From Burkholderiales bacterium (GTDB lineage: Bacteria > Pseudomonadota > Gammaproteobacteria > Burkholderiales > Burkholderiaceae_C): a stretch of 26,015 nt of DNA. The stretch lies in NCBI GenBank assembly GCA_011390055.1, contig JAABTC010000001.1, forward strand, positions 1-26,015, written 5' to 3'. Below the pieces are notes generated by a model that made no database searches, was not told the DNA's origin, and worked only from the letters and a program-made list of their open reading frames with translations. This document shows, piece by piece, positions 6,656-18,889 of the stretch; the first letter of the stretch is position 1; each line of letters opens with the position of its first letter. Position numbers and translations under genes: made by a program.

Positions 6656-6748
6656 AGGGGTCTCCTTGATCAAAACATGTTAGTCCACAACGTGAGTTCG
6701 GACATTCAGATGACTCCGTACTCCATTTGGGTAGTCAGGGCGTACGCC

Positions 6749-9280: not shown

Positions 9281-9583
9281 TCACGAATGCAATGCCTGGC
9301 GCTCTGAACGCAGCACGTCGCACAACATGAGCGCCTGCGAATTGGCGACGTGATAGAAGATCTGTGCGCCAGCCCTGCGCCGCCCCAGAACCCCGCCGCG
9401 GTACAGCACACCCAGGTGCTGCGAAATGTTGGGCTGACTCACGTCCACTTTCTCCAGGAGCTGGCTCACGTTCTTCTCACCTTCGCAGAGTTCGTACAGG
9501 ATGCGCAGCCGCGTCGGCGTCGACAGCATCGCAAACAACTCTGCGGCGATGTCGAAGACCCGGCTTGAAACGGCATCACTCAT
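9281..9583 (-). CDS. ArsR/SmtB-family repressor, SoxR-like, with two Cys (100 aa)
   Basis: LSTPTRLRIL, SQPNISQHLGVL helix-turn-helix, IFY wing, C33 and C88; directly upstream of soxC. Confidence 0.9.
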   Translation of the reverse strand: MSDAVSSRVFDIAAELFAMLSTPTRLRILYELCEGEKNVSQLLEKVDVSQPNISQHLGVLYRGGVLGRRRAGAQIFYHVANSQALMLCDVLRSERQALHS

Positions 9584-10169: not shown

Positions 10170-10388
10170 TCAGTCGTCGCCGGTCGGACCCGCTTCTCGA
10201 ACCTGGCACAGCAAATCTTCGGCCAGCTGCTGGTTGTCGGCAAACATCACTTTGACCTTCGCGTCCGCGGCCACCGACTGCGACGACCGAAGGGACTTGG
10301 CATGGGTCGACGCTTCCTTGAAGGCAATGAACTCGGCCAGCTTCTCGATCTGCGCGAAAGGCCGCACGCTGAAGACGAAGTAGGGCAT
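10170..10388 (-). CDS. Small hypothetical protein (72 aa)
   Basis: Fills the gap exactly between two co-oriented genes (10- and 11-nt spacers) and has a protein-like composition (MPYFVF...KVKVMFADN). Confidence 0.75.
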   Translation of the reverse strand: MPYFVFSVRPFAQIEKLAEFIAFKEASTHAKSLRSSQSVAADAKVKVMFADNQQLAEDLLCQVREAGPTGDD

Positions 10389-10398
10389 CGTGGTTCGC

Positions 10399-10728
10399 TC
10401 AAAGGTAGTGTTTGGTCAGCCGGCGGCGACCGGGCACGGCCTTCTGGATGACGACGCCATGAACTGCCGCCAGATCGGGCAGCGGCTGTTCGGCATAGGC
10501 CGGGTTGAGCGCGTGCAGACGCCAGCCATCGCCCACCTGCACCAGCTGGCGAAAGGTCCACTCACCGGCCACCTGGGCCAGAACGAAGCAGCCGGGGCGC
10601 AGCGCACCGTCGGGCTCGATGATGATGATCTCGCCGGCGTTGAATTCGGGCGCCATGCTGTCGCCGAGCACGCGCAGCGCGAAGGACTCGCCGCCGCTGC
10701 AGCCGGGGTCGTCGTTGAGCTCGCTCAC
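10399..10728 (-). CDS. Stand-alone S24/LexA-like peptidase-fold protein lacking the catalytic Lys (109 aa)
   Basis: FALRVLGDSMAPEF, GCFVLA, WTFRQL and LHALNPAY. GTG 10728 overlaps the upstream TGA (GTGA). The long N-terminal part of the track ORF 10399-11502 is spurious. Confidence 0.85.
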   Translation of the reverse strand: MSELNDDPGCSGGESFALRVLGDSMAPEFNAGEIIIIEPDGALRPGCFVLAQVAGEWTFRQLVQVGDGWRLHALNPAYAEQPLPDLAAVHGVVIQKAVPGRRRLTKHYL

Positions 10729-12212
10729 AGGATCTCCGACCTCATCTGCGCCGCCGGCACGCCCGCCGCCAGCAACGCGGCACCGAGCCCTTCGACGAAC
10801 GCTTGAGGGCCGGCGAGGTAGAAGTCGCAATCGATGTCGAACTGGTCGGCCCGGATCGCAGCGGCGACCTGTGCAGCGCCCGCCGCCGGATCGAGTTCGC
10901 TGAACGCCGCGTACTCGAAGGCATCCAGCGCCTCGGACCAGGCGCGGCACTGGTTGGCCTGGAAGTGACCGTCGCTGCGCGTGGCCAGCCAGTACAGCGA
11001 CAGAGACGGCGACGCGTCGAGCGACAGCGCGTGCTCGATCAGGCTCTTGATCGGCGCGAAGCCGGTGTCGCAGGCCGCGAACACCAGCGGCCGGTTGCTG
11101 TCGGCGAGCACGAACTCGCCGATGGGGCCCCAAAGGTTGAGCGGGCTTCCGACGGCCAGCAAGCCGTCGAACACCATGCGTGCAAAGGCGCTGGCGCCAT
11201 CGCGCGGGATGTAGAAGTGCAGGTTGCGATCGTCGCACGGGCAACTGGCGATCGGATGCGTGGCTCGGACGTCGTCGCCCGCCGTGGCCGCCGAGCCGGC
11301 GCGGCCGAGCGTGACCGACTGCCCGGCCAGGAACCGCAGGCGGTTGGTGCGCGGGGTCTGCAGGTGCAGCAGCCGCGTGTCGGGTGCGAGCTCCCGCACG
11401 GCGCGCACCGTGGCCACGATCTGCTGCTGCGGGATGTCGGCCGGCCCGCCCGCCTCCAGCGTCTCCAGCGTGAGTTCGCTGCTGGCCGCCGTGTGCGCGC
11501 ACAGCAGCGTGTAGCCCTGCCGCTTCTCGGCCTCCGACAGCGGGTAGTCAAAGGGCATCACCTTGGCAACCTCGCCGGCGATCACGCGCACCTTGCACAT
11601 GCCGCAGCTGCCGTTGCCGCAGCCGTAGTTCAGCGCAAGGCCCGACTTCAGGCCGGCCTGCAGCAGCGTGTCGTGACCCTCGACCGCGAACTGGTGGCCG
11701 CTCGGGCGCAGGGTTACCTGTGCCGCCACGACTTTCAGGATGTCATCCATGACGTCGAGAGGATCGACCGCTTCGGTGGCCAGTGCGCGCGCGAGGCCTT
11801 CGTTCAGTTCTCGCTGCAAGATGCGCAGCGATGCATCGCCGCCCGGCGTCTGCAGCAGCAGCGCGTCGATGCGGTCGCGCAGGCCGATCACCAGGGCGTG
11901 GTAGCGCTGCAGGTGGCGCTGCACGTCGGCCATCTCCTGGCCCTGATGAAACAAGCGCTGGGCCAGCACCTCCTGGCTCGGCAACAGCCGCTCGCGCACG
12001 CGCCGGCCAAACGCATCCTCCTTGATGTGCACGACGCGTTCGAGCATGCCGGACTGCTCGAGCTGCATCTGTGGGTACAGCTCGAGGAGCGCCTGCGTCG
12101 ACACCAGGCCATCTGCGAGCGCGATCTCGCCCGCGCGCACGCGCTGTTGCAGCACGCCGCGCGGCACGCCGACCAGTTGCGCTGCGCGCCAGACGGTTAT
12201 CCATTGGGCCAC
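10725..12212 (-). CDS. Fusion of an HTH-like/coiled-coil N-terminus, a [2Fe-2S] ferredoxin and FNR-like FAD/NAD(P) domains (495 aa)
   Basis: N-terminal ITVWRAAQLVGVPRGVLQQRV (excisionase/MerR-like HTH), CGNGSCGMC...TLLC cluster motif, FLAGQ, IASCPCDD, ACDTGFAPIKS and YLAGP; GTG start. Confidence 0.88.
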   Translation of the reverse strand: MAQWITVWRAAQLVGVPRGVLQQRVRAGEIALADGLVSTQALLELYPQMQLEQSGMLERVVHIKEDAFGRRVRERLLPSQEVLAQRLFHQGQEMADVQRHLQRYHALVIGLRDRIDALLLQTPGGDASLRILQRELNEGLARALATEAVDPLDVMDDILKVVAAQVTLRPSGHQFAVEGHDTLLQAGLKSGLALNYGCGNGSCGMCKVRVIAGEVAKVMPFDYPLSEAEKRQGYTLLCAHTAASSELTLETLEAGGPADIPQQQIVATVRAVRELAPDTRLLHLQTPRTNRLRFLAGQSVTLGRAGSAATAGDDVRATHPIASCPCDDRNLHFYIPRDGASAFARMVFDGLLAVGSPLNLWGPIGEFVLADSNRPLVFAACDTGFAPIKSLIEHALSLDASPSLSLYWLATRSDGHFQANQCRAWSEALDAFEYAAFSELDPAAGAAQVAAAIRADQFDIDCDFYLAGPQAFVEGLGAALLAAGVPAAQMRSEIL

Positions 12213-13111
12213 GGAGCCTCCGTGGTTCGATCCAGGTAGCGCGCCCGATAGAGCAAGCGCGGTTGCGCTGGGTCGTCGGCGAAGGCGTCGCGCGCGTGCA
12301 GCACGTTGTGGGCGACGATGCCCATGCCGGCCTCCAGCCGTACGCGCAGCACGTCGGCGTTGCCGTCGGCCAGGAAGCGCTCGAGGAAGGCGACGGCCTT
12401 CAAGGTGGCGGCATCGTTCTTCCAGAGGATGCTGCGCGTGCGCGCGGTGTAGCGCATGTGCAGCGTGCCGTCGCGCGCATCGACCGAGAATACCGGGCCA
12501 GTTTGGGCGGCACGTGCCACACCGCGCCCATCCTCGCGCGCCGGGATCGTCATCGCGTCGGGCGCCATCAGCGCCCGCAGCCAGCGCGGCGAGGCGTCGC
12601 GCAGCGCGATGTAGGCCAGCTCATGGTCGAGCAGCGAGTTGACGCCGCCGCGGGTGGCCGGCCGCACGCAGTGCAGCACGAAGGCCCGGATGCGCTGTCC
12701 TTGCGGGTGGTAGTAGCCGTCGGTGTGCCAGCCGAGTGGCCGGTCGGTGTACGGGATGTAGCCGCTGCGATCCTGCGTCGCCGGACTTACCGTGATGCTC
12801 GAGACGCCGTCCTCGTCGGCCAGCCAGTTGCCGTCCAGGCGCTGCAGCCCGAGTTGACGCGCCACCGCCAGCGCAACGCCCTTGTGTTGCACGCCGCAGC
12901 GGTTGCGATAAATCACCATGTTCCAGCGCGCACAGGCCTGCAGCAGCGCAACGCGCTCGCCGCGGGTCAAGGCGGCGGCATCGGCGACCTCGACGACCAG
13001 GTCTTCGGCGCGACGGGCGCGGTTCGCCAGCTTGCGGGCACGCCAGGCAAAATAGCCTGCATCGTCGACGAGGTCGAACGGCGACAGCGCGGGATGCAGG
13101 ACAGCGCTCAT
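12197..13111 (-). CDS. TauD/TfdA-family Fe(II)/2-oxoglutarate dioxygenase (304 aa)
   Basis: WHTDG (HxD), LHCVRPA.GG.N, NVLHAR (distal His) and RLLYRAR. Confidence 0.9.
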   Translation of the reverse strand: MSAVLHPALSPFDLVDDAGYFAWRARKLANRARRAEDLVVEVADAAALTRGERVALLQACARWNMVIYRNRCGVQHKGVALAVARQLGLQRLDGNWLADEDGVSSITVSPATQDRSGYIPYTDRPLGWHTDGYYHPQGQRIRAFVLHCVRPATRGGVNSLLDHELAYIALRDASPRWLRALMAPDAMTIPAREDGRGVARAAQTGPVFSVDARDGTLHMRYTARTRSILWKNDAATLKAVAFLERFLADGNADVLRVRLEAGMGIVAHNVLHARDAFADDPAQPRLLYRARYLDRTTEAPWPNG

Positions 13112-13115
13112 GGTG

Positions 13116-13760
13116 TCAGTCGCCGCTCATCGACGTTCGCCGGGACGCGCGTGGCTTGTCGGACAACAGATCGAGGATCGCGCTGCGCACGATGTCGACC
13201 GCTTCAGGGGCTTCGATGGCCATCACCTGATCGAGGACCCAGCGCCGGTCGTGTGGCGGCAGGGTCGGCTCGAGTCGGCTGCCGAGGTAGCGCACGAAAC
13301 CGAAGTCCGGCATGAAGGCCTCATCGGTCGTTGCGCTGGCCGGCTCGCCACCGAACTCGGCATAGTGCGGCGACAGTTCGTTGACCAGGTCGATGAAGCT
13401 GTCCTGGTAGCGCGCACCGTCGGCGCGCGGGCCGAGCAAGTCGCCCTCGTTGCCGGCCAGGGTGTCGGCGCAGCGAACGACCAAAGCCGTGGTGAAGCGG
13501 ATGCGGGTTGAAGCGTCCATCTTCGCGTAAGCGGTGCGGTCAACCACCGCGATCAGGAAGACCAGCACCTCGCGCAGGAAGTCGAAGTAATTGCCGCCCG
13601 CCTCGATGTCGAACTTCGCTCCGCGCATGCGCTTCAACGTGTTGTGCGCCACGCGCCAGACGATGAACGCCATCGCGCTGGCCTGCTGCTCGGCGCTCTT
13701 GGGCTCACTGGCCTTGAACCAGTGGCTCTTGATCCGCATGCGCGGCGGGACGAGGCTCAT
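13116..13760 (-). CDS. Hypothetical protein (214 aa)
   Basis: ATG overlaps the upstream TGA (TGATG) and the stop lies 4 nt before the TauD-family start. Globular, largely helical-looking sequence. Confidence 0.8.
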   Translation of the reverse strand: MSLVPPRMRIKSHWFKASEPKSAEQQASAMAFIVWRVAHNTLKRMRGAKFDIEAGGNYFDFLREVLVFLIAVVDRTAYAKMDASTRIRFTTALVVRCADTLAGNEGDLLGPRADGARYQDSFIDLVNELSPHYAEFGGEPASATTDEAFMPDFGFVRYLGSRLEPTLPPHDRRWVLDQVMAIEAPEAVDIVRSAILDLLSDKPRASRRTSMSGD

Positions 13761-14089
13761 CAGTACCCACCCTTGCCCAAAGGCTGCGGCAGGCCGGCGA
13801 CCTTGCAGCCCTGTTTGGCGGGGCCCACTGGAAACAGGTCGTAGAGCGCCTTGCTGTCGCAGCCCGGCAGCACCTCGGCCAGCCCCTTGAGCATGTTGCG
13901 GAAGTTCGGCGTGTGGCCGTGTTCGCGAAATTCGTCGCGCAGATAGGCGACGACCTTCCAGTGGTCTTCGGTGAGCTCGATCTGCTCGGCCGCGGCGATC
14001 ACCTTCACCACCTCGTCGCTGAAGTCGGCCTCGACCAGGAAGCCCTGCTCGTCGGTGTCGAGCTCGCTGCCGTTGACGACGTACCCCAT
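13760..14089 (-). CDS. DsrC/TusE-family paralogue lacking the C-terminal Cys (RspA-type; 109 aa)
   Basis: DTDEQGFL, ELTEDHWKVV.YLR and LYDLFP.GPAKQGCKVAGLP align with DsrC at 18557, but it ends PLGKGGY instead of PTGCV. Start moved to ATG 14089 behind GGGAGA. Confidence 0.92.
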   Translation of the reverse strand: MGYVVNGSELDTDEQGFLVEADFSDEVVKVIAAAEQIELTEDHWKVVAYLRDEFREHGHTPNFRNMLKGLAEVLPGCDSKALYDLFPVGPAKQGCKVAGLPQPLGKGGY

Positions 14090-14109
14090 GTTGTCTCCCT
14101 TGCAGAATG

Positions 14110-14724
14110 TCAGGCGCCGACGGCCGCGGCCGACTTGTGGGGCACGAACAGGCCGCAACCCAGGCGGCGGTGCCGACCCAGGCCGGACTCGAGCACGCGC
14201 AGCGAATCGCCCGGCGCCAAGCCGTCGAGCATCAGGCTGTAGCCGGTCAGCGTTTGGCCGCCGTTGTCGATCATTTGGCGACGTCCGCAGATGGGCCGGC
14301 ACGGCAGGCTCGCGGCCTCGAGCTCGTGACCGATCGTCGCCAGGAACGCCAGCTCGTCGTCATCGTCGGTCGCCACCAGGTGCGCATAGAGCGTGCTGTG
14401 CGGCAGCAGCTCACGCACCTGGCTGCGGTCGCCCACTTGCAGCGCATGGCCGTCGAGATCGAGGCGAGCGCCTCGCAAGCACTGCAGATCGCCGATCCGT
14501 TCGCGCGCGACGCGCAGCGTCAGCCGCGCGCGCTGCGACAGCAATGCCGTCGGGCCATGCCCCGCCACGGCATTGATGCGGTGCACACCGGCATGGGCCG
14601 GGTCCGCGAGCCAGGGCAGGTGGCGCTCCAACACTGCGGCCAGCGCGCGGCGGTGGTCGCGCGGAACAGCATCGCCGCGCAACGCGAAGGTGACATCGAC
14701 CCGGGACGAAGCGCTCGACCGCAT
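14110..14724 (-). CDS. cas6: Orphan Cas6-family RAMP protein resembling type I-MYXAN Cas6/Cmx6 (204 aa)
   Basis: N-terminal VDVTFAL.G..VP.DH, ARLTLRV, GYSLML.GL...DS..V, and C-terminal Gly-rich loop GLGRHRRLGCGLFVP (GhGxxxxxGhG). Confidence 0.82.
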   Translation of the reverse strand: MRSSASSRVDVTFALRGDAVPRDHRRALAAVLERHLPWLADPAHAGVHRINAVAGHGPTALLSQRARLTLRVARERIGDLQCLRGARLDLDGHALQVGDRSQVRELLPHSTLYAHLVATDDDDELAFLATIGHELEAASLPCRPICGRRQMIDNGGQTLTGYSLMLDGLAPGDSLRVLESGLGRHRRLGCGLFVPHKSAAAVGA

Positions 14725-14728
14725 CTGG

Positions 14729-14950
14729 TCAGGCCTCGGGTCGGGGCTGACCGTCGGCCCAGCGCAGGAGCGCCTCGCCCCACTCGCGCGCCGTCTGCGG
14801 GTCGATGTCGAAGACGGTGAAGCGGCTCTTCTCTCGGATGCGCGTTCGCAGCAGGCTCATGCCACCGGCTTCATGGTCGAGTTGCTGCAGCTCGATTTCC
14901 TGACCGCCCAGGGGCGCGCGCAACTTGGCAAGGCTGGTCGTGCGCGGCAT
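14729..14950 (-). CDS. Small hypothetical protein (73 aa)
   Basis: GAGGA RBS before ATG 14950 (MPRTTSLAKL...). Stop lies 4 nt before the cas6 start. Confidence 0.75.
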   Translation of the reverse strand: MPRTTSLAKLRAPLGGQEIELQQLDHEAGGMSLLRTRIREKSRFTVFDIDPQTAREWGEALLRWADGQPRPEA

Positions 14951-15093
14951 TCGTTTCCTCCGGGTGCCGCATTGAGCGCGGGCGCCCGGCAAGCGTCCAT
15001 ACCCGGTACGGGTGAGCGTCGCCTACGCCATCCGGGTAGTGCCGCAGGCATCGATCCGGTCTATCGTCGCCGCAGCACACAGGAGCGCCCACC
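14951..15093. promoter_or_regulatory. Divergent intergenic region between the accessory block and dsrA
   Basis: The only gap between the two divergent arms, with RBSs at both ends and repeated ACCCGG/CCGGGT words. No clear sigma70 or sigma54 boxes found. Confidence 0.6.
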
Positions 15094-18556: not shown

Positions 18557-18889
18557 ATGGGCATCGAAGTCAACGGCACCACCTACGAAACCGACGAAGA
18601 AGGCTATCTGGCCGATCTGTCCGAATGGACCGAGGACATCGGCAAGGCGCTCGCGGTGGAAGAGAAGGTCGACATGACACCCGGCCACTGGGAGGTCGTG
18701 AATTTCCTGCGCGACTACTACAACGAGTACCAGATCGCGCCGGCCGTGCGCGTGCTGACCAAGGCCATCGGCAAGAAACTCGGCGAGGACAAGGGCAACA
18801 GCAAGTACCTCTACGAACTGTTCCCTTATGGCCCGGCCAAGCAGGCCTGCAAGATCGCCGGCCTGCCCAAGCCGACCGGCTGCGTCTGA
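18557..18889 (+). CDS. dsrC: DsrC sulfur carrier with both conserved Cys (110 aa)
   Basis: TDEEGYL, IAPAVRVL and YLYELFPYGPAKQACKIAGLPKPTGCV. Confidence 0.98.
   Translation: MGIEVNGTTYETDEEGYLADLSEWTEDIGKALAVEEKVDMTPGHWEVVNFLRDYYNEYQIAPAVRVLTKAIGKKLGEDKGNSKYLYELFPYGPAKQACKIAGLPKPTGCV

Follow-up and report, generated by a model that had tools for sequence, protein, structure and literature searches.

A winged helix-turn-helix joined to a [2Fe-2S] ferredoxin and a reductase fold with a Cys-Pro-Cys motif: a probable undescribed sensor or control protein of the reverse Dsr pathway

The window considered here, a stretch of 26,015 nucleotides (nt) from a Burkholderiales bacterium of the class Gammaproteobacteria (GenBank assembly GCA_011390055.1, contig JAABTC010000001.1, positions 1 to 26,015), belongs to a metagenome-assembled genome that is 62% complete and whose nearest relatives mark it as a Rubrivivax/Ideonella-like member of the Burkholderiales. 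On its minus strand, at 10725-12212, lies an open reading frame (ORF) of 495 codons encoding a 495-amino-acid (aa) iron-sulfur protein that is the subject of this analysis. The gene starts with a GTG codon at 12212, with a GGAGG sequence 5 nt to its 5' side, and is tightly packed between its neighbors: the start overlaps the final 16 nt of a TauD-like gene upstream, and the TGA stop overlaps the GTG start of an S24-like gene, as GTGA. In 58 homologues the N-terminus is retained from residue 1 and the overall length is similar, indicating that the start is correctly placed. Public annotations of the family are generic, reading either "2Fe-2S iron-sulfur cluster-binding protein" or "CDP-4-dehydro-6-deoxyglucose reductase". 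An AlphaFold2 (AF2) model computed from the 58 homologues (predicted local distance difference test, pLDDT, 86.5; predicted template-modeling score, pTM, 0.80) and comparisons of sequence and fold give the protein a four-part anatomy of winged helix-turn-helix (HTH), helical hairpin, [2Fe-2S] ferredoxin domain and a fold of the ferredoxin-NADP+ reductase (FNR) type. Its features, with the evidence for each, are as follows.

10725..12212, minus strand: the whole gene, HTH, hairpin, [2Fe-2S] ferredoxin and FNR fold without flavin residues (ORF, homologues, AF2)
12069..12212, minus strand: winged HTH of the excisionase/MerR (HTH_17) type, residues 1-48 (HTH_17 in relatives, superposition on Xis)
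11727..12068, minus strand: linker and helices, residues 49-162, a probable dimerizing hairpin (AF2 secondary structure)
11457..11726, minus strand: plant-type [2Fe-2S] ferredoxin domain, residues 163-252 (Pfam Fer2, invariant cysteines)
11112..11429, minus strand: beta-barrel of the FAD-binding type without the flavin residues, residues 262-367 (alignments to GcoB 5ogx and within the family, Foldseek)
11235..11243, minus strand: Cys-Pro-Cys (CPC), C324-P325-C326 (family alignments of 34 and 58 sequences)
10728..11096, minus strand: Rossmann domain of the NAD-binding type, residues 373-495 (sub-threshold NAD_binding_1, alignment)

The features that the initial annotation had picked out, namely an excisionase/MerR-like HTH at the N-terminus, a complete CX4CX2C...C ferredoxin, and the strings ATHPIASCPC and CDTG in the places of RxYS and GGTG, all hold up on closer comparison. 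The ferredoxin motif reads C198-x4-C203-x2-C206...C238, with all four cysteines invariant, and Pfam Fer2 matches residues 167-240 (expect value, E, 2.3e-14; 53.5 bits against a cut-off of 21) as well as every one of the 58 family members. The remainder of the protein is related in fold to three-domain oxygenase reductases: Foldseek searches with the model return GcoB 5ogx, T4moF 4wqm, the carbazole dioxygenase (CarAd) reductase 7c3a and BenC 1krh at E 1e-21 to 1e-23, with sequence identities to the solved three-domain reductases of 20-26%. Profile scores are low throughout, at 20 bits for NAD_binding_1 (cut-off 22) and 13.7 for FAD_binding_6 (cut-off 21.1), and the NCBIfam models nearest to the C-terminal 330 residues, those of BenC-type reductases, score 102 bits where the cut-off is 430.

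Alignment with GcoB (5ogx; phmmer E 1.7e-21) pairs RRQYSLAN with RATHPIAS, PGGVAT with DGASAF and GGGTGLAP with ACDTGFAP, which sets ATHPIASCPC (residues 317-326) at the RxYS site and CDTG (residues 381-384) at the GGTG site. The substitutions extend across the family. Alignments of 23, 34 and 58 members show no conservation of the Arg, Tyr and Ser of RxYS, the consensus being x-x-P-I-A-S, and neither do 14 members that lack the HTH and stand alone; the Ser/Thr of GxxS/T is replaced by a Phe, F343, that is invariant in a 7-sequence alignment; and the first positions of GGxG vary widely (CDTG, DNG, GAG, ELG, ENG and others). At the NAD motif the window protein has CDTGFAP for G-G-x-G-x-x-P, with AGP replacing CGP, and some members carry GxG. 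Canonical Fer2-FNR paralogues encoded in the same genomes retain RRAFS/RSFS (RxFS) and GGGTG, so the change of motifs is specific to the CPC family. What the family keeps instead is the cysteine pair, C324 and C326 being invariant in both the 34- and the 58-sequence alignments and P325 nearly so; the extended form [AG][SN]CPC is found in 160 of 164 members, and a further cysteine, C422, is conserved in at least 90%. The AF2 model and the GcoB alignment place CPC between strands 315-320 and 330-336, in a turn just past the strand equivalent to that of RxYS. Judged by its motifs, the family would lack canonical FAD and NAD(P)H binding, and the CPC beside the [2Fe-2S] domain may be its functional center.

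The annotation of these proteins as NAD(P)H reductases is probably wrong. The initial annotation had weighed an NAD(P)H/Fe-S redox sensor against a reductase whose N-terminus scaffolds the module; the family-wide loss of the FAD-binding residues (RxYS, GxxS/T) together with the unconserved GGxG tells against an NAD(P)H/flavin-dependent sensor and against a working reductase. That the protein is a functional NAD(P)H-dependent ferredoxin-type reductase, feeding the TauD-like neighbor (DsrQ, below) or another oxygenase, we consider improbable. The idea draws on a domain order that matches BenC/GcoB-class reductases, on coupling to the dioxygenase-like gene in 78 of 80 loci, on matches to FAD_binding_6 and NAD_binding_1 in 39 and 31 of the 58 members, respectively, and on the GxG that some of them retain. 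It has to contend, however, with true reductases of the same genomes that keep all three of the motifs altered here, with the BenC score far under its cut-off, and with family members found far from any dsrQ; moreover, it is established that Fe(II)/2-oxoglutarate dioxygenases work without a reductase.

The N-terminal domain does model as an HTH. AF2 predicts the order beta-alpha-alpha-beta-beta-alpha for residues 4-45, a winged helix, and Foldseek reports a probability of 0.99 for that fold. Residues 2-48 superpose on mycobacteriophage Pukovnik Xis 4j2n with Z 6.0 and a root-mean-square deviation (rmsd) of 1.6 Å over 47 of 54 residues, and among the relatives HTH_17 is matched by 13 of 20 family N-domains (best E 8.2e-6) and by 8 of the 58 full-length members; Pfam MerR/MerR_1 matches 1 of the 20, weakly (E 0.094). 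The weak Foldseek rows for the N-domain belong mostly to the MerR family (BmrR, NmlR, CueR, CadR, MerR and SoxR, with high rmsd and E of 0.09-0.7; 0.08-0.7 for SoxR and MerR-family regulators in general), none of them significant. Searching PDB sequences with the N-domain profile yielded coiled-coil noise only, and an Atlas look-up of the domain returned unnamed clusters along with HTH_17 clusters at low scores. R18, G35 and P47 are invariant, and R9, A10, Q22 and G28 at least 90% conserved, across the forms of the domain that are fused to the Fe-S module and those that stand alone. The predicted recognition helix carries both R18 and Q22, and residues 1-28 include four Arg and no acidic residue, for a charge of +4. 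The HTH is a putative DNA-binding head. Beyond a low-confidence linker (51-73), the model has helices at 80-121 (42 residues), 127-145 and 151-162, the last leading directly into the first ferredoxin strand. VIA-align of residues 79-160 finds generic coiled-coil and helical-hairpin matches only, at Z of about 6-7, and the modeled hairpin (residues 80-145) probably dimerizes the protein.

The distribution of the two halves ties both to sulfur oxidation by reverse dissimilatory sulfite reductase (Dsr). Four hundred genomes, sampled evenly across the class, were searched with an N-domain profile, calling DsrA at E<=1e-50. The HTH module occurs in 61 of the 400, spread over about 41 families, and DsrA in 123, including 56 of those 61. 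The five HTH-module genomes without DsrA are 72-93% complete, and four of them fall in families whose other sampled member has DsrA. Close homologues of the C-terminal domain (E<=1e-50) are present in 80 genomes, 72 of which have DsrA; put the other way, the Fe-S/CPC module is found in about 59% of genomes with DsrA (72/123) and in 8 of about 277 without it. In this C-domain search one unpublished genome, G099, gave a paralogue-level match only, and no claim depends on it. Both halves thus occur almost only in bacteria that oxidize sulfur with reverse DsrAB, and their physical and phyletic tie to that pathway is strong.

The halves are joined in some lineages and separate in others. By ORF length and position, the N-domain is fused to the Fe-S module in 35 of the 61 genomes, separate from it but adjacent in 6 (G224, G178, G355, G389, G220 and G275), with a stop codon or short gap between the two, and unlinked to any C-domain gene in 20. 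The unlinked N-domain genes are ORFs of about 145-230 codons, and the proteins read from them measure 143-147 aa. Many C-domain homologues are likewise stand-alone proteins, of about 330-360 aa, and these are commoner than the HTH-bearing form. In genomes lacking the HTH, 14 of 14 such paralogues carry (I/L)A(S/N)CPC without RxYS, as do those of three genomes that encode the HTH protein elsewhere. Fused and stand-alone copies occur together in at least 15 of the sampled genomes. When 164 C-domains were placed in a tree with the canonical paralogues as root, omitting proteins of lengths outside 320-400 and >=460 and the frameshifted P0143 and P0161, fused and stand-alone proteins fell mostly into different clades, with about five switches by parsimony. 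The occurrence of fused, adjacent and unlinked forms suggests, in the manner of a Rosetta stone, that HTH and Fe-S module work together.

Some of these genes lie within the dsr operon itself. The CPC gene is found downstream of dsrN, on the dsr strand, in six genomes drawn from different families; it stands alone in five of them and is fused in G212. One of the six genomes, G440, has the order dsrABEFHCMKLJOPN, DsrR-like, MoxR-type AAA ATPase, DUF2201 metallopeptidase/VWA-like, a 385-aa protein without family, and the stand-alone CPC protein; this operon extension (L244, G440:C1, 11599-17881) ends at its 3' side with the CPC gene, 4 bases after the 385-aa gene, whose product bears no relation to orf214 of the Burkholderiales operon described below. 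Among the loci examined outside Burkholderiales the fused gene is monocistronic, with no conserved neighbors and with no S24-like or orf72-like gene after it, and recurrent GGDEF/EAL and ABC genes near these loci look incidental. Two arrangements may be recorded in passing. In a Sulfuricella-like genome that also has a stand-alone CPC paralogue (L024, G054:C5, 7335-9358), the fused gene diverges from a DsrC-like gene, behind which come three small cupin-domain genes, and in another genome (G318:C86:12103-14669) a stand-alone CPC paralogue adjoins the fused gene on the opposite strand.

In Burkholderiales the fused gene belongs to a fixed operon beside dsrAB. When one genome per species was scanned, a relative proved to be encoded in at least 558, and synteny was read in the best 80, all of them Burkholderiales (Rubrivivax, Hydrogenophaga, Rhodoferax, Polaromonas, Ramlibacter, Piscinibacter, Ideonella and Azohydromonas). 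Cultivated carriers of the family include Azohydromonas sediminis, Rubrivivax albus, Piscinibacter defluvii and Hydrogenophaga aromaticivorans. The operon order, seen in 80/80 loci, is DUF6967, Cas6/Cmx6-like, DsrC-like, orf214, dsrQ (TauD-like), the fused gene, S24-like and orf72. The operon is divergent from dsrAB wherever the contig extends that far, and dsrA is adjacent in 62 of the 80 loci. Within the window's own genus the fused copy is the only form, present in 10 of 29 genomes, and 0 of 7 other genera of the family have the gene, which marks it as an accessory trait that moves together with dsr. The operon partners in the window, again with supporting evidence, are listed here.

14729..14950, minus strand: DUF6967 protein, first operon gene (PF22295 E 1.7e-30)
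14110..14724, minus strand: Cas6/Cmx6-like protein, type I-MYXAN (NCBIfam 142 bits against a cut-off of 99; 69/80 loci)
13760..14095, minus strand: DsrC/TusE-family (DsrC-like) protein (NCBIfam/Pfam, synteny)
13116..13760, minus strand: orf214 (synteny; upstream operon genes kept in 64-73/80 loci)
12197..13111, minus strand: TauD-family Fe(II)/2-oxoglutarate dioxygenase-like gene, dsrQ (Pfam TauD E 1.6e-18; adjacent in 78/80 loci)
10399..10728, minus strand: stand-alone S24 (LexA/UmuD-like) domain of 110 aa without DNA-binding domain (Peptidase_S24 E 2e-18; found by tblastn in 38/80 loci)
10170..10388, minus strand: orf72, last conserved operon gene (no Pfam/NCBIfam match; 71/80 loci)

According to PMC7596348, the TauD-like gene divergent from dsrA received the name dsrQ from Lenk et al. 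2012. Its association with dsrA in aerobic sulfur oxidizers is already published, and on its function PMC7596348 mentions only that there has been speculation about sulfonate breakdown. Three details of the neighboring genes were noted. The start of DUF6967 is the ATG at 14950, in place of the TTG at 14992 given in the ORF listing. The DsrC-like protein, whose gene is separate from the true dsrC (18557-18889), ends in ...GLPQPLGKGGY, keeping the inner cysteine and lacking the penultimate one. No other cas-family gene is found among the conserved members of this dsr-divergent operon.

The company of a genuine Cas6/Cmx6-family protein, well over its family cut-off, and of an S24 domain raises the thought of an RNA- or nucleic-acid-directed module, acting in post-transcriptional control or in a defence-like role, in which the HTH would bind RNA or DNA outside dsr. 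This seems very improbable: neither the Cas6-like nor the S24-like neighbor is found beside the fused gene outside Burkholderiales among the loci examined, and the phyletic tie of the protein is to DsrA, across about 41 families, rather than to mobile or defence contexts.

Taken together, these features lead us to favor, tentatively and with somewhat less than even confidence, the view that the protein acts on the Dsr pathway as a one-component regulator, in which an Fe-S/thiol sensor without flavin is joined to a DNA-binding head. The initial annotation had proposed, as one of two options, a one-component NAD(P)H/Fe-S redox sensor for dsr/sox; the link to dsr is borne out, since the Burkholderiales loci adjoin dsrAB where the contig extends and nearly all HTH-module genomes have DsrA, and the dependence on NAD(P)H or flavin is not, nor is the link to sox, for which nothing was seen beyond neighborhood in the window. 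In the mechanism that we envisage, the hairpin would dimerize the protein, the HTH head would bind DNA, and the Fe-S/CPC module would sense in what redox or sulfane-sulfur state the Dsr pathway is. The CPC would lie about one electron-transfer step from the cluster and, if redox-active, could alternate between thiol, disulfide and polysulfide, and the signal would be relayed through helix 151-162 to the DNA-binding head and on to the genes it may regulate. As to origin, an Fe-S/thiol protein of the Dsr pathway would have been duplicated and then joined to a dimeric winged-HTH module, the sensor half deriving from the stand-alone paralogue of the Dsr operon. The regulator would then sense whatever the pathway protein handles, following the logic of PutA and SoxR with a cysteine pair as in CstR and SqrR. 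The coexistence of fused and stand-alone copies fits the general observation that sensor domains usually arise from pathway proteins, and the solitary fused gene of other lineages fits the frequent absence of conserved neighbors around regulators.

Several observations weigh against a regulator. The first 160 residues of the window protein match no Pfam HTH at E<=5; the top weak Foldseek row of the N-domain is the MerR-like CbpM, and HTH folds can serve protein binding; the N-domain as a whole is neutral to acidic in Burkholderiales, with a charge of -2 to -6; the apparent absence of flavin is deduced from motifs; and the commoner stand-alone form has no HTH, which implies that the core function of the family is not DNA binding. 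The search for a DNA target adds to this list. The intergenic region between dsrA and DUF6967 (14951-15093) contains a block conserved in 60 Burkholderiales loci, and within it lie two copies of an imperfect palindrome, 24 bp apart from center to center.

15000-15014, no strand assigned: YACCC-N5-GGNTA, candidate operator, first copy (conserved intergenic block)
15024-15038, no strand assigned: YACCC-N5-GGNTA, candidate operator, second copy (conserved intergenic block)

Upstream of dsrA in the wider sample this palindrome is essentially absent, with 4 weak matches in the set of 40 HTH-positive genomes and 1 in that of 40 HTH-negative genomes. A discriminative search for palindromes and k-mers between HTH-positive and HTH-negative dsrA promoters returned nothing convincing, and the regions upstream of 33 N-domain genes share no palindrome or direct repeat beyond the level of shuffled sequence. 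A single exact copy of YACCC-N5-GGNTA is present in the window's own genome. A third match in the window, with one mismatch (TACTCCATTTGGGTA), is located at 6719-6733, just after a soxD-like ORF, and a total of three in the window is no more than chance would give, as 28 of 100 shuffles reach that number. There is, in sum, no computational support for any particular operator of this protein. The YACCC-N5-GGNTA palindromes may belong to another regulator; we take their form to resemble that of CsoR/CstR-type operators. A different palindrome, TATCCC-N4-GGGATA, was recorded in a scan of the 600 bp upstream of dsrA (loci L164-L243), where it occurs in 19/80 genomes (7/40 HTH-positive, 12/40 HTH-negative), and a widespread regulator of dsr may use it as its operator.

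Several of these points would be expected if the protein itself transferred electrons or sulfur within the Dsr pathway, the main alternative account, which we judge possible and, on balance, rather unlikely. It might, for instance, be ferredoxin-like and use its CPC to reduce or oxidize a disulfide, persulfide or trisulfide of DsrC, of the DsrC-like protein or of TusA/DsrE, and the HTH-hairpin would serve only to dock or dimerize, with no binding of DNA. The failure to find an operator and the acidic N-domain of Burkholderiales suit this role, as does the commoner HTH-less paralogue lying downstream of dsrN on the dsr strand. So do the translational coupling of the window gene to dsrQ and the S24-like gene and the presence of a DsrC-like protein in the same operon. 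The genomes of the window's genus, furthermore, hold the fused copy alone, which may therefore have to do the job of the paralogue. A mere scaffold is hard to reconcile, however, with R18 and Q22 on the predicted recognition helix and with the basic face of residues 1-28, and the HTH-hairpin also exists as an independent protein of 143-147 aa, the size of a minimal MerR-like regulator. The monocistronic fused gene of other lineages, without conserved neighbors, likewise fits poorly with a transfer component.

Regulator and relay can also be combined in a single, more speculative scheme, which we hold to be doubtful. The CPC-bearing ferredoxin-reductase fold without flavin would be an unrecognized Fe-S-to-thiol relay of reverse Dsr, working on DsrC-type or persulfide carriers, and the window protein would be its sensor derivative, the representative of a new class of Fe-S/polysulfide-responsive one-component transcription factors that sets dsr expression by the condition of the pathway itself.

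In many environmental bacteria the cytoplasmic oxidation of sulfur proceeds mainly through reverse DsrAB; how this route is regulated, and how it hands on some of its electrons and sulfur, is to our knowledge poorly understood. A search of the literature on the family, on dsrQ and on genes bordering the dsr operon of Allochromatium (Alvin_1250, 1266 and 1267) found no description of an HTH-Fe-S protein; only the neighbor dsrQ has a name. Given that both halves are nearly confined to bacteria with reverse DsrAB, we regard the protein as a probable sensor or control protein of that pathway, not described before. If the fused form is a regulator, it would offer a direct handle on the switching of dsr genes; if the module is catalytic, it would be a candidate for a missing Dsr protein. 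In addition, the CPC family could serve as a marker of oxidative Dsr metabolism.

The closest structural relatives of the C-terminal half are BenC (1krh), GcoB (5ogx), T4moF (4wqm) and 7c3a, which share its fold and its order of ferredoxin, barrel and Rossmann domains. The window protein departs from the BenC/GcoB class in the added 160-residue HTH/hairpin, in the CPC at the flavin site, in the loss of RxYS, GxxS/T and GGxG, in its tie to dsr instead of oxygenase clusters, and in scores far below the family cut-offs. In layout it resembles SoxR and the MerR family, where a winged HTH and a long helix likewise precede a sensory part with a [2Fe-2S] cluster. The cluster of SoxR, in contrast, is held by a short CX2CXCX5C tail, whereas here it belongs to a complete ferredoxin domain that leads into an FNR fold, and no promoter with the long spacer of the MerR type has been identified for the protein. 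The HTH itself is of the kind seen in excisionase/Xis HTH_17 domains (Pukovnik Xis 4j2n, BldC), on which residues 2-48 superpose and which most relatives match; unlike Xis, it heads a 495-aa Fe-S protein or a 145-aa HTH-hairpin protein, and it has no recombination context.

PutA is comparable in the way it works only: it too couples a DNA-binding head to a redox-cofactor module from a pathway enzyme, an arrangement by which the state of the cofactor could govern DNA binding, but the folds and cofactors are unrelated. A last parallel is with the Cys-pair persulfide sensors CstR, SqrR/BigR and the ArsR-type SoxR/sHdrR, which combine a conserved cysteine pair and a DNA-binding fold with a context of sulfur-oxidation genes; an ArsR-type gene of the kind that serves as a sulfur-oxidation sensor is present in the window at 9281-9583. 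The folds differ from that of the window protein, in which the cysteine pair is the CPC of an FNR-type barrel beside a [2Fe-2S] domain.

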